Shown: positions 20,139 through 38,682, numbered from the stretch's first letter. The stretch is DNA of 64,000 nucleotides from Minisyncoccota bacterium (GCA_035500505.1 DATJXE010000003.1:201697-265696); one strand, 5' to 3'. Program-made: numbers and translations. The notes: generated by a model not told the origin, from the sequence alone.

Positions 20139-20915
20139 ATGAAAGGGGTATTGTCTCCAATTGCTGCTTCGACAATCGTGCTCTTGCTTGCCTTTGCGCC
20201 ACTTTCAGCGAGTGCCGTAGTTCATGTCTCTGGATATGTAAATAGCCACGGCACTTACGTGGCTCCTTATGTGAGGAGTAATCCCAATGGTTTGAAATAC
20301 GATAATTACAGCTATACGCCTAGCCAGGGACTCTATAACCCAAGCTATGGCACAAAAGATACTGTGTGGGACACTCCAACATGGATTACAGATCCGAACT
20401 ATTATTCGGGACTGTCAGAATATCTTTCGACTCACGGTTCGTCGGGTTCCTTGGCCCCAGGTAATTACAGCGCGACATACCCAACAAATCTCTCTGTACC
20501 AGCTAATGCCACTGCATATGGTTCCACGTGGTATTGCAACAATGGCTATAAAACTATATACGACAGCTCGTACAACAAGATAGGTTGCACGCAAGTCGTC
20601 GCTCCAGCGAACGCAACGGTTTATGGCTCAGACTGGTATTGTAATACCGGATACAAAACGCAATATGATTCGTCGTTCAATAAAGTAGGTTGCACCAAAG
20701 TTGTGGCACCCGCGAACGCCTCCATCTATGGATCAGATTGGTATTGCAATACCGGTTATAAGACACAGTACGACAGCTCGTTTAATAAAATCGGCTGTGT
20801 GAAAGTTGTTGCACCACCGAATGCGACCGTTTATGGCAGTGATTGGTACTGTAATGCCGGGTATAAAACACAATATGATAATTCTTTCAATAAAATCGGA
20901 TGCATCGCAAACTAA
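20139..20915 (+). CDS. Secreted tandem-repeat protein (4 x ~40-aa Cys-containing repeats)
   Basis: Signal peptide, then four repeats 'VVAPANATVYGSDWYCNTGYKTQYDSSFNKIGC'. Markedly AT-richer than its flanks. Confidence 0.6.
   Translation: MKGVLSPIAASTIVLLLAFAPLSASAVVHVSGYVNSHGTYVAPYVRSNPNGLKYDNYSYTPSQGLYNPSYGTKDTVWDTPTWITDPNYYSGLSEYLSTHGSSGSLAPGNYSATYPTNLSVPANATAYGSTWYCNNGYKTIYDSSYNKIGCTQVVAPANATVYGSDWYCNTGYKTQYDSSFNKVGCTKVVAPANASIYGSDWYCNTGYKTQYDSSFNKIGCVKVVAPPNATVYGSDWYCNAGYKTQYDNSFNKIGCIAN
20490..20915 (+). repeat. Four tandem ~120-bp DNA repeats (coding)
   Basis: Near-identical units 'tatgg[ct]tcagactggtattgtaataccgg.tacaaaac.caatatga..cgtcgttcaataaa' read directly. Confidence 0.7.
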
Positions 20916-24478: not shown

Positions 24479-24847
24479 ATGACAGCGGAAAAGACGGCAA
24501 CCAAGAAACCTCGCACCTCGCGTGCGAAGAAAGAGGCTGGCCCCAGTCGGCTGCGCATTCGCGTGCGTGCCTACGAGCACGGCGTCTTGGACCGCTCCGT
24601 CAAGCAGATAATCGACACGGCGGCCCGCTACAACGCCAAGGTCGTTGGCCCTGTTCCGCTCCCCATCGATATAAAAAAGTACACCGTCAATCGCGCCGCA
24701 TTTATAGATAAAGACTCGCGCGAGCAATTTGAGATGCGCATCCACAAGCGCATGATAGACATTTTGAATCCCGAGGCGAAGGTCATCGAGGCCCTCACCA
24801 ACATTGATCTTCCTTCAGGCGTCAACATCGACGTGAAGATGATGTAA
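24479..24847 (+). CDS. rpsJ: 30S ribosomal protein S10
   Basis: 'RIRVRAYEHGVLDRSVKQIIDTAARYNAKVVGPVPLP...FEMRIHKRMIDI'. N-terminal Lys/Arg-rich extension. Isolated from the rest of the S10 operon. Confidence 0.85.
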   Translation: MTAEKTATKKPRTSRAKKEAGPSRLRIRVRAYEHGVLDRSVKQIIDTAARYNAKVVGPVPLPIDIKKYTVNRAAFIDKDSREQFEMRIHKRMIDILNPEAKVIEALTNIDLPSGVNIDVKMM

Positions 24848-24947
24848 GTAAACAGGCCAATCTTGACCAGATTGCCTATCATGGTATAATCCCCTTAGTC
24901 TTCGGAACGAGGTCGACCTCGTAGCCCCGGAGCGTTGGAGTAATCCG

Positions 24948-25190
24948 ATGGAAAAGATCGTTTTGGCCGTTTTTGCGGCCATGCTTGCCGTCGCGCCAGC
25001 GTCGGCGGCGTCGCGCTTTACGTCGGAATCGACGTCGGCGTATGCGGAGGCTTATCCGCCTCAGCCCCAGAGTCTCACCGGTAAGTGTAATCAGTGGGCG
25101 GGCGGGGTGTACAACCCCAGCATCCACAAATGGGTTATCACGAGCCGGTACCAGATGCTCCGGAAGTTGGCCTGTCCGTACTACAAATAG
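24948..25190 (+). CDS. Small secreted peptide (80-aa precursor, 2 Cys in mature part)
   Basis: Sec signal 'MEKIVLAVFAAMLAVAPASAAS'. TGGTATAAT promoter and a 16-nt palindromic 5'UTR hairpin (acgaggtcgacctcgt) lie upstream. Confidence 0.5.
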   Translation: MEKIVLAVFAAMLAVAPASAASRFTSESTSAYAEAYPPQPQSLTGKCNQWAGGVYNPSIHKWVITSRYQMLRKLACPYYK

Positions 25191-25268
25191 CGGCAGACCT
25201 GGAGACACTGCTGGAAGACGAATTTAGGCGGCCACATTGGCCGCCTTTTCATATGCGATGGTTCCCGA

Positions 25269-26657
25269 ATGGGATTCTTGTATAATCGTGCTGTGTCCGT
25301 CGCCCGTCGTTTTACGTTTGAATCATACTCGCTCGACACCGATCAGTCCGTAATCACGTTCACCTACCTGGTCGAATTTGAAGGCGGACACCAAGCGCGA
25401 TATGACGATCGGCTCGAATTTCCTGGCACCACGCGGACGATGTGGGAGCGTATTCCAAAGCCTGTTCTTTCGCAACTACTGCAAAGTCTGACCATACTGC
25501 ACGGCAGCGCGTATTGGAAACTCGATCATGCGGGAGAACTTGTCATCAGAGGATTTAGCCTGACTCGCGCGCAAGCAGATTTTTGGAATGAGGTGTATAC
25601 GAAGGGATTCGGGGAATTCTTTTATAGATCAAACATAGACCACAGAGGGCTGGTTTCCTTCCCATACCGCACTCGGTGGTGGTCAGGCCCGTTGTCAACA
25701 AGATTCAAACGTTCCCCACGCACCCTTCTCCTCAACGGCGGCGGCAAGGATACGGTCGTCTCCGCGGAAATGCTCAAAGAGGCCAGCATCGGCTTCGATC
25801 TGTTCACGTTGGCGAATGTTGGCGCAAAGAAGCGCGTCGCGGAGCACATCGGAACAAGGAACATCACGGTGAAACGCAGGGTCGATCCGGCAGCAGCGAG
25901 GACCGCACAGAGAATGAATGTCGCGCCCGGCGGACTTTTTACACTCACGCTCGGATTCCAGGCGCTCCTTGCGGCCACACTGTGGGACTATCGGTATGTT
26001 GTCTTCTCGAACGAGCAAAGCGCCGACATTGGCAACACCAAGTATCTCGGTCTTGACGTGAATCACCAGTGGACCAAGTCGAGGGAAGCGGAAGAACTCA
26101 CCCGGAAGTACGTGCGAACGTTCATCACGCCCGACGTGGAAGTTTTTTCGCTTTTGCGCCAATTCACCGAGATTGAAACGACGCGCCGCTTCAGCCTATA
26201 TTCGAAGTATTTCGATGCATTCTGCAGTTGCAACATGAATTCTCACGTGTCTCCTGACGAACAAGAAAACGCCCCGCGTTCCGGTTGGTGCGGCAAGTGC
26301 GCGAAGTGCATTTTCATATTTGCAGGTCTCACGGCGTTTTTACCGAAGGAGACGGTTGTCGGTATTTTCGGGCGCAACTTGTATCAAGATACGGCGCTGT
26401 TACCGGTGTTCAGGCAACTGCTCGGGCTGCAAGGCATCAAGCCATTCGAATGCGTGGGCACCTCCGAAGAAATGCTCGTCGCGATGCACCGAGCGGCGCA
26501 AACCGGTTTGTACGATACCGATCCCGCCATGGACATGTTCCTCAAAGAGATTCCACGGACAATACCATTCGATGATATAGAACACCGCGTCCTTTCCACT
26601 CACGGAGAGTCGACCGTTCCGACGGAGTTCAAGGCCATGATGGGCCTCGTCTCATGA
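25269..26657 (+). CDS. PP-loop-like ATP pyrophosphatase superfamily protein with C-terminal CxxC motif
   Basis: 'LLLNGGGKDTVVS' resembles an SGGxDS PP-loop. 'GWCGKCAKC' resembles the QueC-type zinc motif. The true start may be internal. Confidence 0.4.
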   Translation: MGFLYNRAVSVARRFTFESYSLDTDQSVITFTYLVEFEGGHQARYDDRLEFPGTTRTMWERIPKPVLSQLLQSLTILHGSAYWKLDHAGELVIRGFSLTRAQADFWNEVYTKGFGEFFYRSNIDHRGLVSFPYRTRWWSGPLSTRFKRSPRTLLLNGGGKDTVVSAEMLKEASIGFDLFTLANVGAKKRVAEHIGTRNITVKRRVDPAAARTAQRMNVAPGGLFTLTLGFQALLAATLWDYRYVVFSNEQSADIGNTKYLGLDVNHQWTKSREAEELTRKYVRTFITPDVEVFSLLRQFTEIETTRRFSLYSKYFDAFCSCNMNSHVSPDEQENAPRSGWCGKCAKCIFIFAGLTAFLPKETVVGIFGRNLYQDTALLPVFRQLLGLQGIKPFECVGTSEEMLVAMHRAAQTGLYDTDPAMDMFLKEIPRTIPFDDIEHRVLSTHGESTVPTEFKAMMGLVS

Positions 26658-26755
26658 GCCACACGAGCATTGCTTTTCTGTGTTTCGTGGCGCACAGTGG
26701 GTGCGGGCAGATTGCGGATGAACATGAACGCTGCCGCAGGTGGAGGATATAGAAA

Positions 26756-27211
26756 ATGGATCTTGAACTAAGGATCGAGGATCGCTCGTGGGACCGCGAA
26801 CGGCACTTGCGCCACATCAACGAAGGGGCATGGCTTCCCATGTTGGACGCGGATGGTAAGGTGCTCCCGGGTATTGTCGGAAAACGCGGCGTCGAAGGCG
26901 ACAAAAAAGACAGCACCAAGATCGGTGCCGATTTCGTGAAGATGAACCCGGGCACGAAATTTCCTCTACACGAGCATGAAGGCGAGCACGAGATCTTTTT
27001 CATTTCTGGTGAGGGGTTCGTGCATATCGATGGGGAAAATATCCCCGTCCGGGCGGGACACGTAATCCACATTCCGGGGGAATATCCCCATGGCGTGTGG
27101 GTTAGCGAAAATGTCAGCGAGCCGCTTATTTTCGTGGCCGCAGGGCATCCGCACAAACACGTCGATGCGGCCGATCGTATGCAACACCCACATGCACACC
27201 GGCACAGATGA
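26756..27211 (+). CDS. Cupin-domain protein with His-rich C-terminal tail
   Basis: 'PLHEHEGEHEIFFISGEG...HVIHIPGEYPHGV' cupin_2 motifs, and tail 'HPHKHVDAADRMQHPHAHRHR'. Confidence 0.6.
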   Translation: MDLELRIEDRSWDRERHLRHINEGAWLPMLDADGKVLPGIVGKRGVEGDKKDSTKIGADFVKMNPGTKFPLHEHEGEHEIFFISGEGFVHIDGENIPVRAGHVIHIPGEYPHGVWVSENVSEPLIFVAAGHPHKHVDAADRMQHPHAHRHR

Positions 27212-27268
27212 GTTCGAAAACACCACGCAAAAAGAAGGGCCGCCCTGCAAGGCGGTCCTTTATTTTTT

Positions 27269-27838
27269 ATGCAATACTTACGCCGTATGCTCATCTTGCT
27301 CGGCGGTTTTTTGGGGAGTGGACGAAAGATGCTCGCGAAACAGCTCGCTTACCGACAGAAGTTTTATCTCTATGACACGGAGGCAAAGAAGATGCACCAC
27401 CCCGAGTTCCAGTCGGACGGCAGCGTAAAAGAGGTGACCGAACCGCCAAAAAGCGAAGAACAACGGATGTTCCTGTACAAGCGCATCGTTGATGATTTCC
27501 CGCGTCTTTCAAAAATGTATCCGGACACCGTTATTGAGGAGGCATTTCACCGGATCGGACCGCGCGACTACTTCATTACCGAAGCGAAGAAGTTTTTCGA
27601 CCCGGTCGTGTTTGTATGGGTGGACTCTGACGAGGCGCATGTGGAGGAGCGGATGCGACGGATGGTAAAACTCGGGCTGGTAAAGAATCTTAGCGAGGCG
27701 ATGAACCGTCGTCGCAGAGCCGCCCGACATTTCAACCAGGACCCTTCGATGCGGGTGTTCAAGTGTGTCAAAGCCGATAGTGCTGAAGCAGATGCGTTGT
27801 GGACACTCGTTCGCGGAATCGCCGCAGGTAAAAGTTGA
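27269..27838 (+). CDS. P-loop NTPase-like (kinase-like) protein, atypical Walker A
   Basis: 'ILLGGFLGSGRKMLAKQLA' is a glycine-rich loop with RK in place of GK. Weak call. Confidence 0.3.
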   Translation: MQYLRRMLILLGGFLGSGRKMLAKQLAYRQKFYLYDTEAKKMHHPEFQSDGSVKEVTEPPKSEEQRMFLYKRIVDDFPRLSKMYPDTVIEEAFHRIGPRDYFITEAKKFFDPVVFVWVDSDEAHVEERMRRMVKLGLVKNLSEAMNRRRRAARHFNQDPSMRVFKCVKADSAEADALWTLVRGIAAGKS

Positions 27839-27952
27839 ACTATATAATTTTTTTATGACAGCTTTCAGGGGTGGGAGTGCGTGCGAAATTGACTTCCTGT
27901 GGGTAAAACGTACAATGTGAGTTCATCAACTGTCCTGTGAAGGAGAAGAGCG

Positions 27953-28162
27953 ATGAGAAAGCTCATGTTCTTTGCGGCTCTCGCGACGCTGGCGATGATC
28001 AATGTCTGTCAGGCCGCCGACGAGAAGAAAGTTACGACGGTCGACAAAGTCTGTGCGGACGACTGCTACAGTCACTGCGCGTCGCGCGTTGCGCAAAAGC
28101 TGACGGCAAACATTCCCGGCTGTCAGCGTTCGTGCAAGCGAACCCACAACTGCAGCAGTTAA
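27953..28162 (+). CDS. Small Cys-rich secreted peptide (69-aa precursor, 6 Cys in 48-aa mature part)
   Basis: Signal 'MRKLMFFAALATLAMINVCQA', SD AAGGAG. Spacing CxxxCxxxC...CxxxCxxxxxC. Followed by a hairpin + T-run. Confidence 0.5.
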   Translation: MRKLMFFAALATLAMINVCQAADEKKVTTVDKVCADDCYSHCASRVAQKLTANIPGCQRSCKRTHNCSS

Positions 28163-28185
28163 AGCACGAAGGGCGCGTCGGATGA

Positions 28186-28218
28186 AGGGGGTTGGGCGTT
28201 GCTCAGCCCCCATCTTTT
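28186..28218. terminator. Hairpin + T-run between convergent genes
   Basis: ggggg-ttgggcgttgctcag-ccccc-atctttt. Confidence 0.4.
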
Positions 28219-29329
28219 ATATGAAATCATTCTTCGGTTCGTAATACGTCGAGCGATCTAGTTCTTCGGAGAACTTAAATTGTTCGTCGATGAATGGCCA
28301 GACTTTCTGCTGGACCACAAGAAAATGAAGGGATCCGCGTTTCAGTTTATTGTCGCGATACTCCGCATCTTTGGTAAAGTCATAGATAACGTCTTTGCAC
28401 GGCCATTTGTAGGTGCGCCACTCATTTCTTATTTTTTTGTCGAGATTATTCATGCTCCAGAGTTGGAACTCGTCGGTGCGGTAGAACGGCAGGTACTTCG
28501 ATACAGCATATTCGGGCGTTATGCGTGGTGCCATGTATTTCGAAACGAACGTTAGCGTGCGCATGGAAACCGTTTGCCACTTCAACGCAAAATTTATCCA
28601 CCAGAAGAACAGGTAGTTCGTTTCTACGGGGACAGGAGCCGCGTCCTTAACACGCTCGAACATATCCATATAAAAATTCGTCACCTCGTCATCATGCACA
28701 AGGGAGTTGTAAAACGAGAAAATCGTGTCTCGGGAGTACGGCTGATGTAGTGGTGTCGTGCCCAGCATCGCAATGAACTTCGCAACGATGTCAGAGCCGA
28801 ACAGTTGGTCATTGTGTTCGCCGTTGACGATGACATGTTCGCCGCCGAGGAGGAGCGGAAAATGTCCAGACGATTCAGTCTGAAGTTTTCCGTGAATGTA
28901 TTCTTTGTAAAAGGTGGGATATTCGGCGATGGATTCTTCGCTCATGAGTACCGTAATATTCTTTTTCTGCTCAGGGGTAGCATTTTTTAGGAACGACACT
29001 AACACAAGGGTCGAATCTATGCCCCCCGACCAGAATGTGTAGAGCGGAACGCCGAGCTTATCTGCGTGTGCAAGCAATTCACGCGCCCGGTCGTTGCATA
29101 GTTCTTCGAACGTCTTCGTAGTTGATTTGAGTGTTGGAATGGGGAAAAGCGATTCCGTGCGTATGGGAAAACGCACAGTGCCAGTCCGGTCGTTCGGGGC
29201 GACTCCCTGGCCGTATATCTTGAAATAGTTGGAGAACCTCTCGATACCCGGCAGATCAAAATTCGCCGTGTTCGCAACAATGCGCGGCGCATAATGAAGG
29301 AGGCGCGGTGCGTCAGATGACCGCACCAT
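28217..29329 (-). CDS. Asparagine-synthetase-like PP-loop ATP pyrophosphatase
   Basis: 'LYTFWSGGIDSTLVLVSF' SGGxDS PP-loop. AT-rich gene, 370 aa. Confidence 0.55.
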   Translation of the reverse strand: MVRSSDAPRLLHYAPRIVANTANFDLPGIERFSNYFKIYGQGVAPNDRTGTVRFPIRTESLFPIPTLKSTTKTFEELCNDRARELLAHADKLGVPLYTFWSGGIDSTLVLVSFLKNATPEQKKNITVLMSEESIAEYPTFYKEYIHGKLQTESSGHFPLLLGGEHVIVNGEHNDQLFGSDIVAKFIAMLGTTPLHQPYSRDTIFSFYNSLVHDDEVTNFYMDMFERVKDAAPVPVETNYLFFWWINFALKWQTVSMRTLTFVSKYMAPRITPEYAVSKYLPFYRTDEFQLWSMNNLDKKIRNEWRTYKWPCKDVIYDFTKDAEYRDNKLKRGSLHFLVVQQKVWPFIDEQFKFSEELDRSTYYEPKNDFI

Positions 29330-30044
29330 AACAATCTTTGTAGAAACGCTGTAAAGTTGCCGTGAGTTCCTCTACCGTCTTTGCTTCACGGGCGTTGTTG
29401 AAGTAACGCAGCCGGAGCAATTCCGTTTTCGCGAGCTGGTCTTCATCCATTTGGGACTTGAAAAGGATGTCGTTGGCAGCCTGTTTCGGGTCGATGTTCG
29501 CGAAGTCGGCGTACTGAACGACGAAGGGAAATTCCAGCAGGCGTTGCTCGTCGTATCCTGAATCTTTGAAGCCCTTTGCTTGAGCGGCTTTCATTGCATA
29601 GACGGTTTCTTGGAAAGCGACGCCAGTTCCGACTCGATCGCGCGAGGCACTTATGGTGGTCATAATGCGTCCGACAACCTTTCCTTTTTCAGTTGTGAGG
29701 CTCGCCTGGCCACGCAACGCATCGGTTACCTGTTCGGACGGTGTGCGCACGAATAATCGCTCGTTCGTCCAAGTCCATTCGGGGTATGACTCGGAAGGGA
29801 CGCCTTCGAGAAAGAAAGAGTCGGGATAATTGGGATAGTTCACCTCCTGGACGTAAAACGAACCCGATGTGCACTCCTCTAAAAATACAAGGGTTGAGGG
29901 GTACGGGGAGATGGTAAGGAGTCGCTTTTCGCCATCGAGCAACGCACCATATCTGCGAGTAAATCTCGGTGCACCCGTATCCGGGGTATGAGAAAAAGGC
30001 CAGCGCATATGTACCCATTTTACTGGGGCGTTCTGGTCATGCAA
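29313..30044 (-). CDS. Hypothetical protein (operon with ycaO)
   Basis: 243 aa with no motif. Overlaps its neighbours by 17-25 nt. Confidence 0.35.
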   Translation of the reverse strand: MHDQNAPVKWVHMRWPFSHTPDTGAPRFTRRYGALLDGEKRLLTISPYPSTLVFLEECTSGSFYVQEVNYPNYPDSFFLEGVPSESYPEWTWTNERLFVRTPSEQVTDALRGQASLTTEKGKVVGRIMTTISASRDRVGTGVAFQETVYAMKAAQAKGFKDSGYDEQRLLEFPFVVQYADFANIDPKQAANDILFKSQMDEDQLAKTELLRLRYFNNAREAKTVEELTATLQRFYKDCYGAVI

Positions 30045-31639
30045 TAGAGTTCATTGGCAACGGTCGTCATGAAAAAACGCTTGGTCGCTGGGTTATATGC
30101 AATTTTATTGACGATACGTTCGGTCGCTTGAAAGACTGATTGCCCCGCGCCAGTCTCAGGATCTATCGCGTACAGTCTCCCATCGTTAGAGCCAATGTAA
30201 ATGGCATCTTCCACCAAAAGTGGAGAGGCAAAAATTCGGCCGGCAGTGCGGAACTCCCATTTTTTCGATCCGGTATCAAGGTCGAGGGCGTAGACGCCTT
30301 TGTCCAGCGAGGAGAAATACGCAGTCTCGCCAATAACGAGCGGTGTCGAGTAACTCCCCGCGCTCGGCTCGTACGCGAATATCGGCGTACCATCGGTATC
30401 AAGGGCGTAAAACAGTCCGCCGAGTGAACCGAAGAGAATAAGCTGCCGTTTCGGGTCGTACGCAAAGGATGATTTTACGCTACCTTGCACACGATACTGC
30501 CAAAGGGGAGCACCCGAATCGGCTCGATATGCGTACACGATGTCATCGTTGCTTCCGACGACGACCATGTTCTTTTCTCGTATGTACAGAGGAGATCCGT
30601 GCGTGCACTCGCCGCTATGGTGCTGCCATACAACCTCACCGGTATCCATTCTCAAGGCGACCATGCCGCCTTGTTTCCGGAAAAGCCCGAACTCAAGGCC
30701 GATGAAGAGAAGACCGAGGTCGGGCGCAAGCGACGGTGAAGAGCCGACCCAATCCGCGTCTTCGTACTTCCATTTGAGAGTGCCCGATCGTGCTTCGAGC
30801 GCATAGACGTTACCATCGTATGCGCCGAAATAGACGGTGTCCCGGTGGAGAGCGGGAGAGGAAAAGATTCCTTTACCAGCCGGATGTTTGCCCGTTTCGA
30901 ATGACCAGGCGACCGAACCATCATTCTGGTTCAGCGCATAAAAAGTTCCCGCATCGCTACCAAAATAGACACGCTCGGCATCCAGAACGGGGGCGGACTT
31001 TTGTACCACGTAGTTAAAGGCGGGGTTGGGAGCGGCAAAATGCCATAGCTGTGTGAGCGCCGCTCTCTTCGCCTTCGGCGTTGTAAGTGAGAGACCGAAA
31101 TCTTCGAGTGTGAAAAGCTTATGCATTGTGCGTTTTTTGTCGAGCAGCGGCGCGTACGCAGTGTCATCCCTGAACGCGATAAGCGCGAACATGTCAGACA
31201 CGGCCAGCCCCTCGCGTTCCAGGACCTGTATCTGCGTGGTGAAGGTATTCCCGGAATTGACGAGATCGTCCACCAAAATAACGGGATCGCGTGTCGGGGC
31301 ACCTTCGAGGCGTCTCATGAGTCCTTGTCGTTTACGCGACTTTCGAATAAAAAGCCCGTTCACTGGTGTTCCACGTTCCATGCTTTTCATCACGATAGCT
31401 GCTACGAGGGCAATGCCAGCGCTTTCCATAGCGCAAACTTGGAACGGATACCTTTTTGCGCATGCATCCCAGAAGAATTCCGCGTACGCATCCAGCCAAC
31501 GAGGCTGCAGCAAGAGCGCGCGGAAGTCGAAGAGCCACGGCGCATACGAAGCCTCATCGACCATGACGATGGGCCGTTCTGGAGAGAAATGTACGATCAC
31601 GTCTTTCGCTATCGCTTCGCGAAGGGTTTTTTTGTCCAT
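30020..31639 (-). CDS. Phosphoribosyltransferase-domain / PQQ-like beta-propeller fusion protein
   Basis: N-terminal 'DPVILVDDLVNSGNTF' PRTase motif. C-terminal 6-8 repeats 'VYFGSDAGTFYALNQNDGSVAWSF', 'VYALEARSGTLKWKY', etc. (PQQ/BamB-like). Confidence 0.6.
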   Translation of the reverse strand: MDKKTLREAIAKDVIVHFSPERPIVMVDEASYAPWLFDFRALLLQPRWLDAYAEFFWDACAKRYPFQVCAMESAGIALVAAIVMKSMERGTPVNGLFIRKSRKRQGLMRRLEGAPTRDPVILVDDLVNSGNTFTTQIQVLEREGLAVSDMFALIAFRDDTAYAPLLDKKRTMHKLFTLEDFGLSLTTPKAKRAALTQLWHFAAPNPAFNYVVQKSAPVLDAERVYFGSDAGTFYALNQNDGSVAWSFETGKHPAGKGIFSSPALHRDTVYFGAYDGNVYALEARSGTLKWKYEDADWVGSSPSLAPDLGLLFIGLEFGLFRKQGGMVALRMDTGEVVWQHHSGECTHGSPLYIREKNMVVVGSNDDIVYAYRADSGAPLWQYRVQGSVKSSFAYDPKRQLILFGSLGGLFYALDTDGTPIFAYEPSAGSYSTPLVIGETAYFSSLDKGVYALDLDTGSKKWEFRTAGRIFASPLLVEDAIYIGSNDGRLYAIDPETGAGQSVFQATERIVNKIAYNPATKRFFMTTVANELYCMTRTPQ

Positions 31640-31644
31640 GTGAT

Positions 31645-32388
31645 TCAATCGTGTACCTCTTGTAGGGAGCTCCTGGTGTCTTCTCCTCGGCACAGGATGA
31701 TCGAGAGGACTGGCTGCTCGAGCCGTTCGTCTATGTCGAGCAGAGATAGAGCAACTTCGTCAGAAAACCCGATGACAGGGCGCGCACCAATCTCGCACGC
31801 AGAAGCCGCGAGCAGGATATTTTCCGATAAATGTCCCGCTTCAAGTAGCGCCAGCATATAGGCGAAATCGCCGTACTTTGCGGACGAACGTTCCCACACA
31901 CTCGTGAAGAGGACGATTGAGGAAGCGGCGGGCGCCTCTGGGGCGCGTACCAGATCACTCATCGAAAAGTCAGTTGGAACGTCCCAGAGCCGCTCGAGCG
32001 CATGTTCGGTCGGATGATAATGGAACACCCCCGAGCCCGCCCCTTCGATCCCTCTGGAAACGATGTACGTTTCGATCGGAAAAAGCGCGCCGCCGGAAGG
32101 ATATCGACGCCGCACCGAACCATCGTGTCGCCGCAGCCCCGAAAACACTGCTCCCAGATCGTCAGTGGAAAGCGGTCCTTCGTTGCGCAGTTCGAGAAAG
32201 GAGCGTCTGTGGCGAAGCGCCTGAGAAAGCGGAGTTTGTAGCTCCGTTCGCGGCAAGACGAACTGCTGCATGCGAGGGTATTCTTTATGCAAACCCCTCG
32301 GGACGTCCTTCGGGTCGTGCGTTGCCCCGCGTCTAGTAAGGCGAGCGCGCCGCAAGTCGCCGTGGAGATCTGAAAGAAAAAAAGTCAT
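31645..32388 (-). CDS. SagB-type (TOMM/McbC-like) nitroreductase-fold dehydrogenase
   Basis: 'LRHRRSFLEL', 'YPSGGALFPIETYI', 'SIVLFTSVWERSSAKYGDFAYMLALLEAGHLSENILLAASACEIGARPVIGF'. Confidence 0.7.
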   Translation of the reverse strand: MTFFLSDLHGDLRRARLTRRGATHDPKDVPRGLHKEYPRMQQFVLPRTELQTPLSQALRHRRSFLELRNEGPLSTDDLGAVFSGLRRHDGSVRRRYPSGGALFPIETYIVSRGIEGAGSGVFHYHPTEHALERLWDVPTDFSMSDLVRAPEAPAASSIVLFTSVWERSSAKYGDFAYMLALLEAGHLSENILLAASACEIGARPVIGFSDEVALSLLDIDERLEQPVLSIILCRGEDTRSSLQEVHD

Positions 32389-32389
32389 A

Positions 32390-33823
32390 TCAACAGAATG
32401 GGTGCGGTCGTTCGACGAATGGTTGTTCTAAAGGTTCGTAGCCGAACAGGCGGGGGACAAGTTGAAGCCGTTCTCCCCCGAGATGTCGCATCCGCTCGGC
32501 AAGGTGTGTTGGATGCAAATCAGGCATAAGGATCATTTCGATGTGCCACGGGGTCGGATTCGCCTTAGAGGAGGTCAAGGGTACCGAAACACACTCATAA
32601 CCTTTTTCTCGGCACCAATTCTCGATCCGTTCCAACTGCATCTGCGGTGTGTCGTCTTCCCAGGCCGCCCGAACGGGGTCTTTCTCTTCCCCAGAGACTA
32701 GGAACTCAAGATGGCGTGCATGTTCGGGGTCTTGCCAGTAATGCACGCGACCTCGGTGGCCGATATCGTCGACCGGTTTTGATGGGTCATAAAACTCGTC
32801 GGGATCGGCCTTGCGCGTAAAGCGTCGCGCACGCAATGCTTCCAAGATTGCTTTTTCGGAAGCATCCGCAAGTGAGCGGTGTGCCTTAAGCCCGAAGGCG
32901 AAACGAGGACCGACCGGACTAGGGTCCTCAAGGATCGCACAAACGGCATGTGTCGGTGCATCAGTAAGCATTGTGATGATGTGTACGCGTAGGCCGTAGC
33001 GTTCGCAGCGAGAAATGATAGCGTCGAGTGTCTTTGATCGTGTTCGTAGCGAAGAGGGGTGTATGCGCGGCAGTGAAAGCTGATTAAACCACATGATCAT
33101 ATACGATTCTCGTTCGATACACTCAAGCGCCCCGGCGAGCCGCGCGCCGATCCTTGTCGGCCATGTCGCAAGTCCTGTGGTATGTTGCATTCGTATCAGC
33201 GGTTCCTGAGGAGATACTTTAAATGGACCCCACGCCGCACTAACAGTTTGCGCCGGCACGTAGATTTTTTTACCGCTTACGAGTGATGTCCCTTCAATCC
33301 ATAGATACGATGCTTCGGGAGGGAGGCGAAACTGTGACGATTGCAGGCGTTGTGCCTCTGAAAAAGAAACGAATTGATGTGGAGCGATGATAGGGAAGCG
33401 AGCTCGCATTTCGTCAATCGTGCCGCGTCGCGGACGGACGAAGTAATCGCGCTGTGTCCACCAAATGTAACGTTCAAGGCCTTCTGCGAGCGCTGCAAAG
33501 AGAGCAGACGTATCGTTGTCGACCGACGAACCGCCGGCGAAGTTTTCCGCGGAGTCTCTCACTCGACAGATCCAGTGTCGCACTCCTGGTTCATCTGGCA
33601 ATCCTTCCGTAGGACCGTACCAGCTCACGACGCCCCGGTCGATGAGCTTCGTCGCGACAGACAATGGTTCTGCTAGGTCAGCGCGACCGAACGGCACGCG
33701 CCTTTTATCGTACAGCACGGTGACGCCGAGCCTTCGCTCAATGAATTCGAGGAAAGAAACTATGGCTCGTCGCCCCCGATTTTCTTGAGCGACGTCATCA
33801 AACCGCACTCCGTCGATGAGCAT
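32390..33823 (-). CDS. ycaO: YcaO-domain ATP-dependent cyclodehydratase
   Basis: 'AGGSSVDNDTSALFAALAEGLERY' and 'TTGLATWPTRIGARLAGALECIERESYMIMW' YcaO signatures. Pro-rich C-terminus 'ERPHPFC'. Confidence 0.8.
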   Translation of the reverse strand: MLIDGVRFDDVAQENRGRRAIVSFLEFIERRLGVTVLYDKRRVPFGRADLAEPLSVATKLIDRGVVSWYGPTEGLPDEPGVRHWICRVRDSAENFAGGSSVDNDTSALFAALAEGLERYIWWTQRDYFVRPRRGTIDEMRARFPIIAPHQFVSFSEAQRLQSSQFRLPPEASYLWIEGTSLVSGKKIYVPAQTVSAAWGPFKVSPQEPLIRMQHTTGLATWPTRIGARLAGALECIERESYMIMWFNQLSLPRIHPSSLRTRSKTLDAIISRCERYGLRVHIITMLTDAPTHAVCAILEDPSPVGPRFAFGLKAHRSLADASEKAILEALRARRFTRKADPDEFYDPSKPVDDIGHRGRVHYWQDPEHARHLEFLVSGEEKDPVRAAWEDDTPQMQLERIENWCREKGYECVSVPLTSSKANPTPWHIEMILMPDLHPTHLAERMRHLGGERLQLVPRLFGYEPLEQPFVERPHPFC

Positions 33824-33928
33824 TCCGCGATTCTAGCACAAGGGCCATTCCACAGCCTGCCGCTTGGGTTACTGCAAAGTATCCACACGCCATGCGACTC
33901 AGCGGCAAGTACCTGGTACTATGGGTGC

Positions 33929-34234
33929 ATGCGTTCTGCCAATAAGAATACTCGGGGTCTCTTGCGGAAGATCTTTCTCTCCGCGACGATCGTATTCGGT
34001 TTTCTATCTATCATATTTTCAAGGGATTTTGGTGGAGCATCACGCCTGCTTTTCAGGGAACGGGACAACGGGATAGCGCATGCCGACGCGCCGAGTAGCG
34101 GCGGGGGCGGAGACGGGGGTGGAGGCGGCTCTGGCGATGCTCCCAGTTGCAACTACGGTGACGCCGGCAGTGGGTGCTCAGATTGCGGAGCCGATAGTGC
34201 GAGCGCGGACGCAGGCGGGGGCGATGCAGGGTAA
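33929..34234 (+). CDS. Candidate RiPP precursor: hydrophobic leader + Gly/Ser/Cys/Asp-rich C-terminal core
   Basis: Divergent from ycaO in a ~430-nt intergenic gap. Core 'DAPSSGGGGDGGGGGSGDAPSCNYGDAGSGCSDCGADSASADAGGGDAG'. Could instead be a chance ORF in G-rich DNA. Confidence 0.35.
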   Translation: MRSANKNTRGLLRKIFLSATIVFGFLSIIFSRDFGGASRLLFRERDNGIAHADAPSSGGGGDGGGGGSGDAPSCNYGDAGSGCSDCGADSASADAGGGDAG

Positions 34235-34254
34235 ACAACCCAGTAAATTTTTGT

Positions 34255-35400
34255 ATGAGCAAGACAACGGGAATAGCGATTGTAGGAATGGTGGTGGCGG
34301 TTCTGCTCGCTATAATTGCCGTCGTATTCCTGTATGAACAAAATTTTGTTGCACAGCCTTCTCACCCTTCAAACCAGGACCTCTGGTATGAAACCCTGCA
34401 GGACAATCCAGCGTTCGCACTTGCGCTCCAAGAAGAAGGACAAGGCGACTACGGCGCAGGCGCCGAGAGTGTAAAGCAGGCGCTTGCTTCAGCGGCAAAG
34501 TCCGACCAGATGCAGTTGCTTGCGGTGTATCTCGGGGTGGCGTATGGATACGCCGGGGACTACCAAAACGCCGTCACTCAGCTGGAACAAGTGGTTGCGA
34601 CGAACTCGGATACTCCGGATACACGTGCTTTTGCGGCCGAGCAACTAGCTCTTGCGTACTCGCGCAATCCGGCCGCGAACTCCGTGTTAGCAATGTTACA
34701 GCAACCCGCATATAAGAGTCTGTACGTAGCGACCAGCACAAATCTAACGGCGCGAGGACTCTTTCTGTATGCGACCGCGATCAAGCCGTTGCCACTTTCC
34801 GAATACAACATTGCGAACACGTTCGCTACCTCCATTTTCAACCAAAGCCTGGTTGGCACCACTTCTCCTGCCGGCAAGGCACAATTCGCATCCCTTGAAC
34901 AGAAGTTGAAGAACCGACTGCTTGCCGGGGATGCGGCTCTTGCCACGCTCGACCAGGTTCCTTATCCGAGTTATGAACCCGAAGCTCAGGCGTTGAAGGC
35001 TCTCGTTCTCGGAAAGCTTCAAATCATGGGCGACACAAGTTTGGGTGATGCTAGTCAGGCATACACAACTGCACTCGCAAGCTATGCGCTCCAGGGTGCC
35101 CAAGATGGACAAGTTCGCATATGGTATGCATCGTTCCTAGCGGCTGCTTACGGGACGTCGCGCCTCGCGGACATAGAATCTGTTCTCGCTCCGATTTATC
35201 AAGACCCGACGCACCGCGGCGTAACCGTGGTTTCCACCTTGCAATCGTATGTGGGTGCGCTCAATTCAAGCTCGAAACGAAGTCTTGCAACGCTCGCAGC
35301 CATCGACCCTCAGTTCAGGACATTTCTACAATCCTTAGGGTGGACGGCTAAGGATTTTTCAGCGACAATCGTTCAGACTTCGACAACGACGACAAAATAG
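34255..35400 (+). CDS. Hypothetical membrane-anchored Ala-rich protein
   Basis: N-terminal TM 'IAIVGMVVAVLLAIIAVVFLY', then a 350-aa Ala/Leu/Gln-rich extracytoplasmic domain. Confidence 0.45.
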   Translation: MSKTTGIAIVGMVVAVLLAIIAVVFLYEQNFVAQPSHPSNQDLWYETLQDNPAFALALQEEGQGDYGAGAESVKQALASAAKSDQMQLLAVYLGVAYGYAGDYQNAVTQLEQVVATNSDTPDTRAFAAEQLALAYSRNPAANSVLAMLQQPAYKSLYVATSTNLTARGLFLYATAIKPLPLSEYNIANTFATSIFNQSLVGTTSPAGKAQFASLEQKLKNRLLAGDAALATLDQVPYPSYEPEAQALKALVLGKLQIMGDTSLGDASQAYTTALASYALQGAQDGQVRIWYASFLAAAYGTSRLADIESVLAPIYQDPTHRGVTVVSTLQSYVGALNSSSKRSLATLAAIDPQFRTFLQSLGWTAKDFSATIVQTSTTTTK

Positions 35401-35402
35401 GC

Positions 35403-36209
35403 ATGGCGGCCGTGTCGACCGATCGACTGTTCTATCCGGCGTGGGCGATCGTGATCGCACTCGCGCTCTTTTTTTTGGCGCCTGAAGCGCACACGTTCGC
35501 GACGAATGTCTACGAGGACATGGCTTACGCGGTCGATCCCTCGGCGTCCCGGGCCTTCGCTTACGGAGAGCGACATTTCGATGCGACGAACCCGAGCGAG
35601 TATGACCTCGATCGTGCCGAGTATTTTTTCACTCTCGCGGCGAAGAAAGATCCGTCGACTCCCTATCTCTATCATGAACTGGCGCGCATTTCTTTTTTGC
35701 GCGGCGACTATAAGCAGGCACTGGCGAGGATCGACTTCCAGATAATGCTTCACGGTGACTCCGAGCCGAATTCCTATTACGTGCGCGGGCTCATTGAGGG
35801 ATACATGCGCGATTATGGAGACGCCATAACTGACTACACGCATTTCCTGCTGTTCGACCCCAACGACTGGGCCGCCATTAATGATGATGCGTGGGTCTTA
35901 CTCAAGGCGGGACGTTTTCAAGAAGCGGCCGATCTCACGACCAAAGGCCTGAAGATATATCCGGAGAATCCGTGGCTTCTCAACTCGAACGCGACCGCGC
36001 TTTATGAGTTGGGCCTCTACCAGCCTGCCCTTGCTGCTGCCGAAAAAGCCGAGGCTGCTGTAGCTACCGTCACGGATTCCGAGTGGTCACATGCCTATCC
36101 CGGCAACGACCCAACCATCGCGGGGGAAGGCGTCGCCTCCTTTAGGCAAGCCGTGGCTGACAATGTGCACACCATCCAACTGGCGCTTGCCACGAGTACG
36201 GTACAATGA
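35403..36209 (+). CDS. TPR-repeat protein with N-terminal TM anchor
   Basis: Several 34-aa TPR-like repeats ('YYVRGLIEGYMRDYGDAITDYTHFLLFDPND', etc.). Confidence 0.6.
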   Translation: MAAVSTDRLFYPAWAIVIALALFFLAPEAHTFATNVYEDMAYAVDPSASRAFAYGERHFDATNPSEYDLDRAEYFFTLAAKKDPSTPYLYHELARISFLRGDYKQALARIDFQIMLHGDSEPNSYYVRGLIEGYMRDYGDAITDYTHFLLFDPNDWAAINDDAWVLLKAGRFQEAADLTTKGLKIYPENPWLLNSNATALYELGLYQPALAAAEKAEAAVATVTDSEWSHAYPGNDPTIAGEGVASFRQAVADNVHTIQLALATSTVQ

Positions 36210-36220
36210 CGTAAAACCCT

Positions 36221-37933
36221 ATGAGCGGACAGAGTCATGCGCAAACGTTCGATATAAAGAGGTATGTTGCGTACGCATTTGCTCTCGCGATAGTCGCGCT
36301 GCTTATAGCCGGAGCATCGAGTCACGCGGCCGGCCACCTCTCGCCTGAAGTGAAATTCACCGATGCCTCCGGGGGCGGCCTCGCCATCGTGCCGGCGTCA
36401 TGCCCTTCCGACCCGCAATACCTTGGGGACTGCACAACTTCGTGCGACAACGGCCTCGACATCGCGCAATATCCTTCTTGCAGCTGCCCCGCCGGCCAAA
36501 CGCAAAGCGGAAGCACGTGCGTGTGCCCCTCGGGCCAGGTGTGGAACGGTACGCAATGCGTTTCGCAGACCGTGGGACCGAGTTGTACATGTCCGAGTGG
36601 ATATACGTTGAACGGCTCGACCTGTGCCGCAAACCCCGGCAGTCAGTCCTTTACGACCCCCACCCCCCCGGGAGGTACCACGTTCTCGGTGCCGCAAAAC
36701 TACGCATCTCTCACCGTAACCGTTCTGGGAGCAGGTGGTGGTGGTGGCGGCGGGGGTGGACCCATGTACTTCAACCCGACGAATGGCTGGATAAGCGGCC
36801 AGCCTGGAAGTTCGGGCGGGTCGGGCACTTCTTCTTCCTTCAATACGTCCGTCGTGGCTAACGGTGGCGGTGGTGGTGGCGGTGGTGGCGCGGGAAACGT
36901 GAACATAAGTGACGCTGGAGACTTTGGCACCAACGGAAGTCCTGGCTCGGACGGTTCCTCCGGGACTGCGAGCGGGGGCACTACCAACACAACAGGCGGA
37001 GGGGCATCCGGCGGCTCCGGCGGTCCTGGCTCGTCTTATACGAGCGACAGCGGCTCGGTCTCGGACTGGGGTGGCACCGGTGGAACCGGTGGCACGGGCG
37101 GTAAAGCAGTGAAAACCTATGCCTCGGGGGTGCTCACAGGGAACATCACAGTGACCGTGGGCTCCGGCGGCTCCGGCGGAGGCGGTCAACCATATGGCGG
37201 AAGCTCGGGCGGCAATGGCTCGGTGTCCATTACGTGGACGACCTCTTCCGACATCTCGGCGTCTTGCTCCTGCCCCAGCGGATACACCGACCAGGGCGGC
37301 GGTTCATGTGTTCTCTCACAATGCACAGGAGGAGAACTCCTTCAGGGCGGTTCCTGTGTTCCGACCTGTGGCATCGGATACACACAACAAGATTCCAGTT
37401 GTGTATTCGACCAGTGCCCCATCGGCTACGTGCAGGGGGCTGACAGCAATGGCAACACGACCTGCACCTTCTCCAGTTGCCCGGTCGGCTACACACAGCA
37501 AGGTCAACAGTGTGTCTTCACGAGTTGTCCTCTGGGCTACACGCAAGGAACCGATGCGAACAACAACGCCATCTGCACCTACACCGGTTGCCCGCGGTAC
37601 TACACGCTCCAGGATGGGCAATGTGTGCTCTCCACCCAGTCATCGCCTCTTGGGGAGATCGTCGCAGTCCCGTCGGTACTCAAGACAGGTGGCACATCCA
37701 AGATTTCCTGGAGTGCCGGCGGTGTCTCTTCCTGTACGGTTACCGGTTCCAATGGGGACGGCGGCTCGGGCTGGGGCTGCTCATCACAGATCGCTTGTGC
37801 TGCCACCACGACTCACCCAACGAGCCAAATACAATCGCAGACAATTTACACGCTCAATTGTACGGCCCTCGACAGCAGCACCTTCACTCGCTCCGCGACG
37901 GTGAATATCGTGCCGGTATTCCAGGAACAGTAA
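36221..37933 (+). CDS. Large surface protein: ~12 'CPxGYTxxGxxCV' Cys-hairpin repeats flanking a glycine-rich (Gly_rich-like) core
   Basis: Repeats such as 'SCPVGYTQQGQQCVFTSCPLGYTQGTD'. Core 'VTVLGAGGGGGGGGG...ITVTVGSGGSGGGG'. N-terminal TM/signal present. Confidence 0.55.
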   Translation: MSGQSHAQTFDIKRYVAYAFALAIVALLIAGASSHAAGHLSPEVKFTDASGGGLAIVPASCPSDPQYLGDCTTSCDNGLDIAQYPSCSCPAGQTQSGSTCVCPSGQVWNGTQCVSQTVGPSCTCPSGYTLNGSTCAANPGSQSFTTPTPPGGTTFSVPQNYASLTVTVLGAGGGGGGGGGPMYFNPTNGWISGQPGSSGGSGTSSSFNTSVVANGGGGGGGGGAGNVNISDAGDFGTNGSPGSDGSSGTASGGTTNTTGGGASGGSGGPGSSYTSDSGSVSDWGGTGGTGGTGGKAVKTYASGVLTGNITVTVGSGGSGGGGQPYGGSSGGNGSVSITWTTSSDISASCSCPSGYTDQGGGSCVLSQCTGGELLQGGSCVPTCGIGYTQQDSSCVFDQCPIGYVQGADSNGNTTCTFSSCPVGYTQQGQQCVFTSCPLGYTQGTDANNNAICTYTGCPRYYTLQDGQCVLSTQSSPLGEIVAVPSVLKTGGTSKISWSAGGVSSCTVTGSNGDGGSGWGCSSQIACAATTTHPTSQIQSQTIYTLNCTALDSSTFTRSATVNIVPVFQEQ

Positions 37934-37982
37934 GCGTGGGGAAAAACGTCCGCGCCGCCTGGCTCGATGCTATAGTTGTTGC

Positions 37983-38429
37983 ATGCAGAGAGTTTCTCTC
38001 CGGACGTTCGCTTTCCCGCTGGCCCTTGCGGTTGCGATAGTTTCGGCAAGCGCGGCGTTTGCGTATGCGCAGACCACAACCGACGCGCAACTTCGCGCGA
38101 CCATCCAGGCCGAAGTGACGGCCGATCCGCGTTCGCAAACGATGTCGCAGGCGCAGATACAAGCGCTTGTCGACTCGCTCACCGCCCAGGCACAGGCGCA
38201 AGGCCTCACGGCTTCGCAGCTCACCTATCGTGCGCCCACCCAAACTCCGGAGACTTCCTTGCCCGCGCCGAGTTCGCAGTGCACGACGTTCTCCTGTTCG
38301 CTCGCCCGCGCGTTCGGGCTCGACGGCTCCGTTCCCATCATCCCCATTGCGCTTTTTGTGGCGGCGGCACTCTTCATTCTTCTTTTCAGCATCATGCGCG
38401 AGTTAGGGCATCCGCACGCACAGGCTTAG
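37983..38429 (+). CDS. Hypothetical secreted protein with C-terminal TM anchor
   Basis: Signal 'AFPLALAVAIVSASAAFAYA'. C-terminal 'IIPIALFVAAALFILLF'. Confidence 0.4.
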   Translation: MQRVSLRTFAFPLALAVAIVSASAAFAYAQTTTDAQLRATIQAEVTADPRSQTMSQAQIQALVDSLTAQAQAQGLTASQLTYRAPTQTPETSLPAPSSQCTTFSCSLARAFGLDGSVPIIPIALFVAAALFILLFSIMRELGHPHAQA

Positions 38430-38434
38430 AGCGT

Positions 38435-38562
38435 GCGGCGAAGCAGCATGAGTTTTTGAATATCTCGGCTTTGCCACCGTTCTCTTTCTCTGTGCCGGAC
38501 TCTGCCGCAAGAAAACCATTTTGGAAAAATGTGGTAAACAAAAACTCATGCTGCTTCGCCGC
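38435..38562. repeat. Perfect 24-bp inverted repeat (arms 38435-38458, 38539-38562; 80-nt spacer)
   Basis: gcggcgaagcagcatgagtttttg / caaaaactcatgctgcttcgccgc. It starts 6 nt after a stop codon, upstream of the rplC operon. Confidence 0.85.
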
Positions 38563-38639
38563 ATAGCGGCATAGTTGCACGCCTTCTTTTTTCGTATATA
38601 GTGCTTCCACCCAAGTCCGTATATGGACCAATGGTGAGC

Positions 38640-38682
38640 TTCAAAAGCCCGCCATTGCGGGCGTTCACATTTTTAGGATATG
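38640..38682 (+). promoter_or_regulatory. Leader hairpin + U-tract + SD before rplC
   Basis: gcccgc-cattg-gcgggc-gttcacattttt-AGGAT-ATG. Confidence 0.35.

Follow-up and report, generated by a model that had tools for sequence, protein, structure and literature searches.

A 64,000-nucleotide stretch of the genome of a Minisyncoccota bacterium (GCA_035500505.1, DATJXE010000003.1:201697–265696), referred to here as the window, includes two genes, at 25269–26657 and 28217–29329, whose products were both described in a first-pass annotation as PP-loop ATP pyrophosphatases that may tailor the peptides of an adjacent YcaO system. We find that these two genes, both of the PP-loop type, serve different functions. 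On sequence homology, the product of 25269–26657 (plus strand) is clearly MurL, a member of a housekeeping family of peptidoglycan enzymes, and this gene is unconnected with the YcaO genes. Judged by its predicted structure, the 370-aa product of 28217–29329 (minus strand) is a stand-alone synthetase domain of the asparagine-synthetase type without a glutaminase, and belongs to a large family encoded by both uncultured phages and candidate-phyla-radiation (CPR) bacteria. Tailoring of an azole-containing peptide is plausible for this second enzyme alone, and not for MurL.

The 462-aa MurL protein matched the NCBIfam model NF041275 (UDP-N-acetyl-alpha-D-muramoyl-L-alanyl-L-glutamate epimerase) with an E-value of 2.2e-77, residues 11–456 aligning with positions 6–441 of the 447-position profile, and the score of 260.5 bits lies under the Xanthomonadales-specific equivalog cut-off of 700. 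Precomputed annotation places the Pfam domains MurL_N (PF26299) and MurL_epimerase_C (PF26298) on the NCBI protein of identical sequence as well as on each of the 120 listed homologues; both domain models are newer than the Pfam version that was searched directly, which gave no MurL match. The search found 816 homologues and, among the 120 listed, all organism names, where the source names any, are CPR or unclassified. The two motifs previously read from the sequence are present, NGGGKDTVV at aa 156–164 (nt 25734–25760) and WCGKCAKC at aa 340–347 (nt 26286–26309), the latter as part of a wider cysteine cluster (SCN...WCGKCAKC, nt 26226–26309). In 82 MurL homologues, residues G159, K160, D161, C321, C341, C344, C347 and C395 are fully conserved, and G157 and S162 almost fully, the window protein having T162 and thus reading GGGKDT where the family reads GGGKDS. 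The motifs GGGKD, NHQW.K, SCN, WC..C.KC and C.G, which do not vary among the 82 homologues, are all found in the window protein. Because they are conserved across homologues, NGGGKDTVV and WCGKCAKC, and likewise the SGGIDS of the second enzyme, are family signatures and not chance strings.

The order of genes on a Roizmanbacteria contig is MurB, MurA, MraY, MurL, a MurD-type ligase, FtsW, MurG and FtsQ/A/Z, and on an Uhrbacteria contig it is GlmM, MurL and a MurD-type ligase. The ligases encoded directly downstream of MurL in these two loci (MurL/murD pairs at L036:8001–10572 and L203:7001–9681) scored 274.7 and 258.6 bits, respectively, against the murD equivalog cut-off of 211.95. Since MurL lies directly 5′ of murD, in or beside the division and cell wall (dcw) cluster, in both Roizmanbacteria and Uhrbacteria, these data suggest that the MurL/MurD route to D-Glu is widely distributed among CPR bacteria. 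The characterised MurL of Xanthomonas requires ATP and Mg2+ and releases AMP, and adenylation of the alpha-carboxylate of Glu has been proposed (PMC5808125, PMC8788868). The same papers state that MurL lacks known domains, and name as hosts a few proteobacterial and actinobacterial genera, with CPR not among them. The window protein shares full-length homology with the Xanthomonas enzyme, and its CPR orthologues share the adjacency to murD seen in Xanthomonas murD2-murL (PMC8788868). It differs in its location, which counts against a cell-wall role, as the gene follows rpsJ, not murD, and the window open reading frames (ORFs) that were scanned include no Mur ligase.

MurL lies on the strand opposite to the YcaO genes and forms a transcription unit with a cupin gene, ending at a terminator-like hairpin with an 11-bp stem (27234–27261). 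Gene neighbourhoods were compared in 23 non-redundant loci orthologous to that of 28217–29329, each with at least 7 kb of upstream sequence, and in 80 sampled viral loci, a neighbour in the orthologous loci being a gene within 10 kb of the enzyme gene. MurL is within this distance in two of the 23 orthologous loci and in none of the viral loci. In a small number of close relatives (L034/L035, L039, L046 and L201) it does recur near the YcaO cluster, because MurL directly follows rpsJ in this clade (seen in L034/L035 and L201).

The GGGKD(S/T) strand-loop-helix of MurL is probably an ATP-binding PP-loop, as judged by profile comparison. When a profile of the 82 MurL sequences was compared to all PDB sequences, the seven best matches were all PP-loop proteins, namely TtuA PH0300 twice (E 0.0036), MJ0690 (E 0.16) and four MnmA (E 0.5–1.2), and all seven were in register over profile positions 134–175, a 39-residue strand-GGGKDS-helix-strand stretch. 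A smaller MurL profile also matched the PP-loops of TtuA, MJ0690 and MnmA, and single family members gave sub-threshold Pfam matches to ThiI, QueC and MnmA. The release of AMP in the published assays fits PP-loop chemistry. Weighing against the assignment are the marginal E-values and the degenerate motif, GGGKDT, of the window protein. The single window sequence had no match in the PDB, and an hhalign comparison of MurL with the family of the second enzyme aligned the two loops with a probability of 1 %. A literature search found nothing describing MurL as a PP-loop enzyme.

The C-x19-C-x2-C-x2-C cluster of MurL is proposed to form a metal site and resembles the Cys clusters of QueC and TtuA. 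The first-pass annotation had likened the Cys motif of this protein to the zinc site of QueC, a fair description of the chemistry in as much as a PP-loop-type motif and a Cys cluster are present; it is not, however, QueC. Neither window enzyme gave a significant Pfam or NCBIfam match to QueC, and the ORFs scanned in the surrounding island included no que genes; among the MurL homologues, one carries the label QueC at JGI. While the strand-GGGKDS-helix aligns with the PP-loops of TtuA, MnmA and QueC, that of MurL is at residue 157 rather than N-terminal, and MurL carries large extra regions at both its N- and C-terminus.

In the second enzyme, the reported motif FWSGGIDSTLV is found at aa 99–109 (nt 29035–29003), with S101-G-G-I-D-S106 invariant in 24 homologues, and a further motif, GEHNDQLFG, at nt 28822–28796 may be the equivalent of the AsnB motif GEG(A/S)DE.FGGY. 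An AlphaFold model of the enzyme (pLDDT 92.6, pTM 0.90) includes approximately 70 mostly unstructured residues ahead of the first helix of the synthetase domain, and its best structural match class was the fold of the C-terminal domain of AsnB, at 11–15 % identity. At the sequence level, the Pfam Asn_synthase model (PF00733) gave an E-value of 0.18 and 11.9 bits, which does not reach the cut-off of 21, and weak matches to the same model were obtained for nine of 24 family members. The enzyme had no significant Pfam match and no match in NCBIfam, PHROGs, PADLOC or the PDB sequences, and an hhalign comparison of the family with an AsnB-like 632-aa ORF in L017 aligned the PP-loop alone. No glutaminase (N-terminal nucleophile, Ntn) domain was found in the enzyme or in the adjoining 231-aa protein.

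The protein shares 100 % identity with a hypothetical protein from a metagenome-assembled genome of Candidatus Paceibacterota (CPR) and has 763 close homologues, the whole family forming 1771 clusters at 50 % identity. A Rosetta-stone check of longer family members revealed one GNAT fusion only, and nothing was found in the literature on this phage and CPR enzyme family. From the modelled fold, we propose with fair confidence that the enzyme is an ATP-pyrophosphatase that would adenylate a carboxylate (ATP to AMP and pyrophosphate), after which an amine or free ammonia would attack to produce an amide, via either amidation or lactam/isopeptide formation. It shares the synthetase-domain fold with members of the AsnB superfamily (AsnB, beta-lactam synthetase, the carbapenam synthetase CarA and the hydroxyamidotransferase TsnB9), but is shorter (370 aa versus approximately 500–580 aa), is without an Ntn domain or a remnant of one, shares only the low identity noted above, falls under the Pfam threshold and has an obligatory 231-aa helical partner.

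AsnB-type enzymes encoded in operons for ribosomally synthesised and post-translationally modified peptides (RiPPs), such as the lasso cyclases and the C-terminal amidotransferases of thiopeptides, amidate or cyclise peptide carboxylates. The window resembles these systems in having an AsnB-type enzyme inside a RiPP-type operon; it differs from them in that the 370-aa family is found mostly outside RiPP contexts, in phages, and from the lasso systems in that neither a B2 leader peptidase nor a B1/PqqD recognition element was detected in the operon. A lasso-type system was considered and rejected, as no B1 or B2 domains were found in the operon using Pfam and NCBIfam and the model of the partner protein had no matches to recognition elements.

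The partner, encoded at 29313–30008 (minus strand), is 231 aa long, and the stop codon of its gene overlaps the start of the enzyme gene. The partner gene is directly 5′ of the enzyme gene in all 23 orthologous loci, and in 75 of the 80 viral loci it is also upstream and in the same orientation, the median gap of −4 nt being an ATGA-type overlap that is typical of translational coupling. The partner has a small alpha/beta N-terminal domain followed by a long helical bundle, with no recognisable catalytic fold; in a structure search the matches were to generic helical bundles only, and the N-terminal domain did not match a recognition element. PHROGs gave only a weak match to a family of unknown function. 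Few partner residues are invariant, and among them G129, Q133 and E134 (G-x3-Q-E) fall in the sole disordered or low-confidence internal loop.

At least 473 viral contigs, among 600 IMG/VR pattern matches listed, encode a relative of the enzyme; the matches are full length at 30–50 % identity, and two copies occur in some of the contigs. The best structural match in BFVD was to a protein from an uncultured Caudovirales (TM 0.92), and UniProt/BFVD gives the name 'Asparagine synthase' to some of the viral homologues. The sampled viral loci include genes for PhoH and exonucleases with strong PHROG matches. A Cupin_2 family gene is present in 33 of them, in 25 of these within 500 bp of the enzyme gene, while 16 have a 311-aa PP-loop paralogue and 11 have a B12-radical-SAM gene. 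In cultured phage genomes the window enzyme had no match, and a viral homologue had one match, of 23 % identity, to a protein annotated as MnmA. PHROGs includes no family for the AsnB-like enzyme, in either the window or the viral version, and no defence system was matched in PADLOC.

Three soil contigs (L052, L055 and L065) contain the partner, the enzyme (approximately 52 % identity) and a cupin that is 54–60 % identical to the cupin of the window. In these contigs, the three genes are directly upstream of very long ORFs (1,177–2,726 aa) that are phage tail or tape-measure-like by appearance. These contigs could be relatives of CPR phages, or the source of the module.

In the window, the partner and enzyme genes are the last two of five genes that lie in abutting or overlapping frames on the minus strand, from 33823 to 28217. 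The first gene encodes a YcaO cyclodehydratase of the SagD type (32390–33823; Pfam YcaO E 4.6e-40; TIGR03604 E 4.3e-52, under the cut-off), and the second a SagB-type FMN dehydrogenase, which converts azoline to azole (31645–32388; TIGR03605 E 8.9e-30, with 103.4 bits exceeding the cut-off of 78.4). The third (30020–31693) encodes an unusual fusion of a phosphoribosyltransferase (PRTase)-like domain to a PQQ-type beta-propeller (Pfam Beta-prop_ACSF4 E 6e-52 and PQQ_2; NCBIfam pyrE domain E 2.6e-9), in which the PRTase part resembles orotate phosphoribosyltransferase and includes the phosphoribosyl pyrophosphate-binding loop VILVDDLVNSGNT, and the propeller is apparently cytoplasmic. The sole strong hairpin of the operon is after the last gene. 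A GC-rich hairpin of 11 pairs (28187–28211) fills the 54-bp gap between the enzyme gene and a convergent gene for a six-Cys peptide, and may be a terminator for both transcription units.

Among the 23 orthologous loci, YcaO is a neighbour of the enzyme gene in 12 (13 when L039, with SagB at the edge of the locus, is counted), and either YcaO or SagB is nearby in approximately 55 %. The PRTase-propeller is a neighbour in 13 loci, a QueC-like 300-aa PP-loop protein in nine, a homologous cupin in seven and CapK-like adenylating enzymes in five. By our reading of the match tables, 17–18 of the 20 loci that are not phage-like hold at least one further cluster gene (YcaO, SagB, PRTase-propeller, CapK-like ligase or Gly-rich peptide). 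Co-conservation with ycaO is partial, as it is seen in the 12 or 13 loci noted above and is missing both from the viral loci and from clusters that lack the enzyme (L034/L035 and L201).

Two further components of the related clusters were seen. Between SagB and the partner, CapK/PaaK-like adenylate-forming ligases are found in some relatives, either in place of the PRTase-propeller or together with it (L040:6312–8970, L039:3883–5229 and L201:8436–9833). The second PP-loop protein, of approximately 300 aa (FSGGIDSE; weak QueC and Asn_synthase matches), is found in the same clusters (L038:8323–9228, L004:11072–11980, L005:13067–13939 and L012:5129–6016) as well as in the 16 viral loci mentioned above (e.g. 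L178:5432–6367), and is absent from the window.

Clusters for linear azole-containing peptides (LAPs) that encode YcaO and a nitroreductase are known from 93 CPR genomes (Sharrar et al. 2020, PMC7298704). As far as the account of the clusters in that report extends, the window shares with them a YcaO gene beside a nitroreductase/SagB gene, a Ser/Cys-rich precursor nearby and an origin in Parcubacteria. Where that account lists YcaO, nitroreductase and peptidase, the window instead has the PRTase-propeller, the partner and the AsnB-like enzyme, and further differences of the window precursor from those in that account are its hydrophobic helix and its conserved A(H/Y)AD(A/V)P motif.

This candidate precursor, a membrane-anchored peptide of 101 aa, is encoded at 33929–34234 (plus strand), divergently from ycaO, and consists of a basic N-terminus, a single hydrophobic helix, the sequence GIAHADAP and a tail rich in Gly, Asp, Ser and Cys. 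The A(H/Y)AD(A/V)P architecture is conserved beside the cluster in at least 11 relatives (L001, L004, L005, L007, L008, L012, L015, L034, L038, L046 and L061), and the tails of this peptide family resemble microcin B17-type cores. L005, the one locus that has no YcaO despite ample flanks, retains, besides the peptide genes, both the PRTase-propeller and the pair; its two copies of the peptide have tails without Cys, which fits these peptides as substrates of the cyclodehydratase. Hence, 33929–34234 probably encodes the YcaO substrate and is a better candidate than the six-Cys peptide.

The first-pass annotation had looked instead to small secreted peptides lying between the two enzymes. One such gene does lie there, namely 27953–28162 (plus strand), which encodes a 69-aa secreted-type peptide with a signal-peptide-like N-terminus followed by six Cys and has a promoter-like site at 27889–27916 ahead of it and the hairpin at 28187–28211 behind it. 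The other, 24948–25190 (plus strand; 80 aa, signal-peptide-like N-terminus), is upstream of MurL, and a promoter-like site at 24863–24890 (11 of 12 matches) and a terminator-like hairpin at 25226–25246 make it an independent unit. Neither is conserved in related loci, as tblastn gave no match to the 80-aa or the 69-aa peptide in 120 related loci, and both were rejected as precursors. The closest relative, L041 (71 % identity), has just approximately 120 bp where the 69-aa gene lies in the window.

In the explanation that we favour, the partner and the enzyme, often with a cupin, would constitute a mobile module common to CPR bacteria and uncultured phages, which in this Paceibacterota lineage would have been incorporated at the 3′ end of the YcaO-SagB-PRTase/propeller operon. 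There, the pair would modify a carboxylate of the cluster product, which we infer to be the azole-bearing, Gly/Asp/Ser/Cys-rich peptide of 33929–34234. The structure of the operon and the synteny in CPR argue for such a target in this organism, and on these grounds we give it almost, though not quite, an even chance. However, a number of observations weigh against it. Genes for YcaO or for SagB and the propeller are found without the pair in L034/L035 and L201, and two or three paralogous pairs are present in some genomes and viral contigs. Pfam and NCBIfam detected neither a leader peptidase nor a recognition element in the operon. The pair is also present in the phage-like soil contigs, and YcaO, SagB, MurL and Gly-rich peptides are all missing from the 80 viral loci. 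The distribution in phages would be better accommodated if the pair, together with the cupin, were a self-contained module with a more general target, acting on a substrate unrelated to the YcaO peptide, be it the partner itself, a small molecule or an envelope or host target, and owed its place in the operon to nothing more than the tendency of the rpsJ-rplC island, in which the cluster lies, to gather accessory genes. The coupled partner in 75 of 80 viral loci, the bona fide phage genes (PhoH, exonucleases) beside it, the closeness of the Caudovirales structure, the existence of YcaO clusters without the pair, the multiple pairs on single contigs, and the location of the invariant G-x3-Q-E of the partner in a low-confidence segment all favour such an autonomous module. 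On the other hand, it does not readily account for the position of the window pair at the distal end of a tight operon that starts with YcaO, or for the further cluster genes near the pair in 17–18 of the 20 non-phage-like loci, and we consider it a serious contender that ranks slightly behind an azole-peptide target. It is rather doubtful, though only slightly more so, that the module, sometimes together with the second 300-aa PP-loop paralogue, performs an undescribed ATP-dependent amide-forming modification and was recruited by Paceibacteria into the azole-peptide cluster; one possibility is then that its target is the Gly-x3-Gln-Glu loop of the partner, or a host or envelope target.

Two other explanations fare less well than either an azole-peptide target or an autonomous module. 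The enzyme might be an ammonia-dependent asparagine synthetase, that is, a metabolic gene of a genome-reduced CPR bacterium and an auxiliary metabolic gene of phages, in keeping with the best structural class, with the names given to some viral homologues and with the lack of a glutaminase domain, which would leave free ammonia as the nitrogen donor. This is improbable given the 11–15 % identity to AsnB-type structures and a Pfam score of 11.9 bits against a cut-off of 21, and a coupled non-enzymatic partner, multiple paralogues and a YcaO operon would not be expected for a metabolic AsnA or AsnB. The original proposal that both PP-loop enzymes amidate or adenylate the YcaO peptides drew on their proximity in the window, and the occurrence of MurL near the cluster in the few relatives listed above would be in its favour, but this recurrence is accounted for by the position of MurL after rpsJ. 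Against it stand the family membership of MurL and its synteny with murD and the dcw cluster elsewhere in CPR, its separate transcription unit on the opposite strand and its rarity near the other enzyme (2/23 and 0/80 loci), such that we give it hardly any credence. Orthology to a housekeeping enzyme, which would speak against peptide tailoring, was found for 25269–26657; for 28217–29329, the last gene of the operon, the proposal stays a hypothesis.

All of these genes are located in a 13.8-kb island of accessory genes (24848–38679) that separates rpsJ from rplC and so splits the S10 ribosomal operon. The left border is rpsJ (24479–24847, plus strand), encoding ribosomal protein S10 (Pfam Ribosomal_S10 E 7e-31), and the right border is rplC (L3; 38680–39285), followed by rplD (L4; 39297–39968). 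Many Paceibacteria-type genomes have variable versions of the cluster at this position; in 11 of the 23 orthologous loci the enzyme gene has rpsJ within 10 kb, and both borders of the island are visible in L004 and L040. In the window, the plus-strand genes from 24948 to 28162 are convergent with the minus-strand YcaO row (33823–28217). As previously noted, a cupin with a His-rich tail, a P-loop protein and the six-Cys peptide are encoded between the two enzymes. The Cupin_2 protein (26756–27211, plus strand; Pfam Cupin_2 E 1.1e-11; His-rich tail HPHKHVDAADRMQHPHAHRHR) is 41–70 % identical to proteins encoded in L003, L004, L039, L046, L052, L055 and L065, and in related loci its homologues are downstream of the enzyme gene and convergent with it. 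The P-loop protein (27269–27838, plus strand) is AAA_33-like, with a sub-threshold Pfam match (E 0.019). Its tblastn matches in L001, L012, L040, L041, L056 and L063 share 30–48 % identity, and homologues lie between rpsJ and the enzyme gene in some relatives.

Two further genes lie outside the island. Just past tuf, 20139–20915 (plus strand) encodes a secreted protein with approximately four tandem repeats of about 38 aa, YGSDWYCNTGYKTQYDSSFNK(V/I)GC..., and a weak EGF-like Pfam match. At 54265–57072 (plus strand), a 935-aa protein with domains of the TraG/TraD-type coupling proteins of type IV secretion is encoded in this CPR genome.

Placing MurL in cell-wall housekeeping rather than peptide tailoring removes a false lead, and a PP-loop-type ATP site would provide a testable answer to the view that MurL lacks known domains. 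The second gene defines a large uncharacterised family of AsnB-like enzymes without a glutaminase, each with an obligate partner, that is common to phages and CPR bacteria. With what is probably the true precursor of the CPR azole-peptide cluster in hand, the pathway, including any part that this enzyme may have in it, would be testable via heterologous expression.

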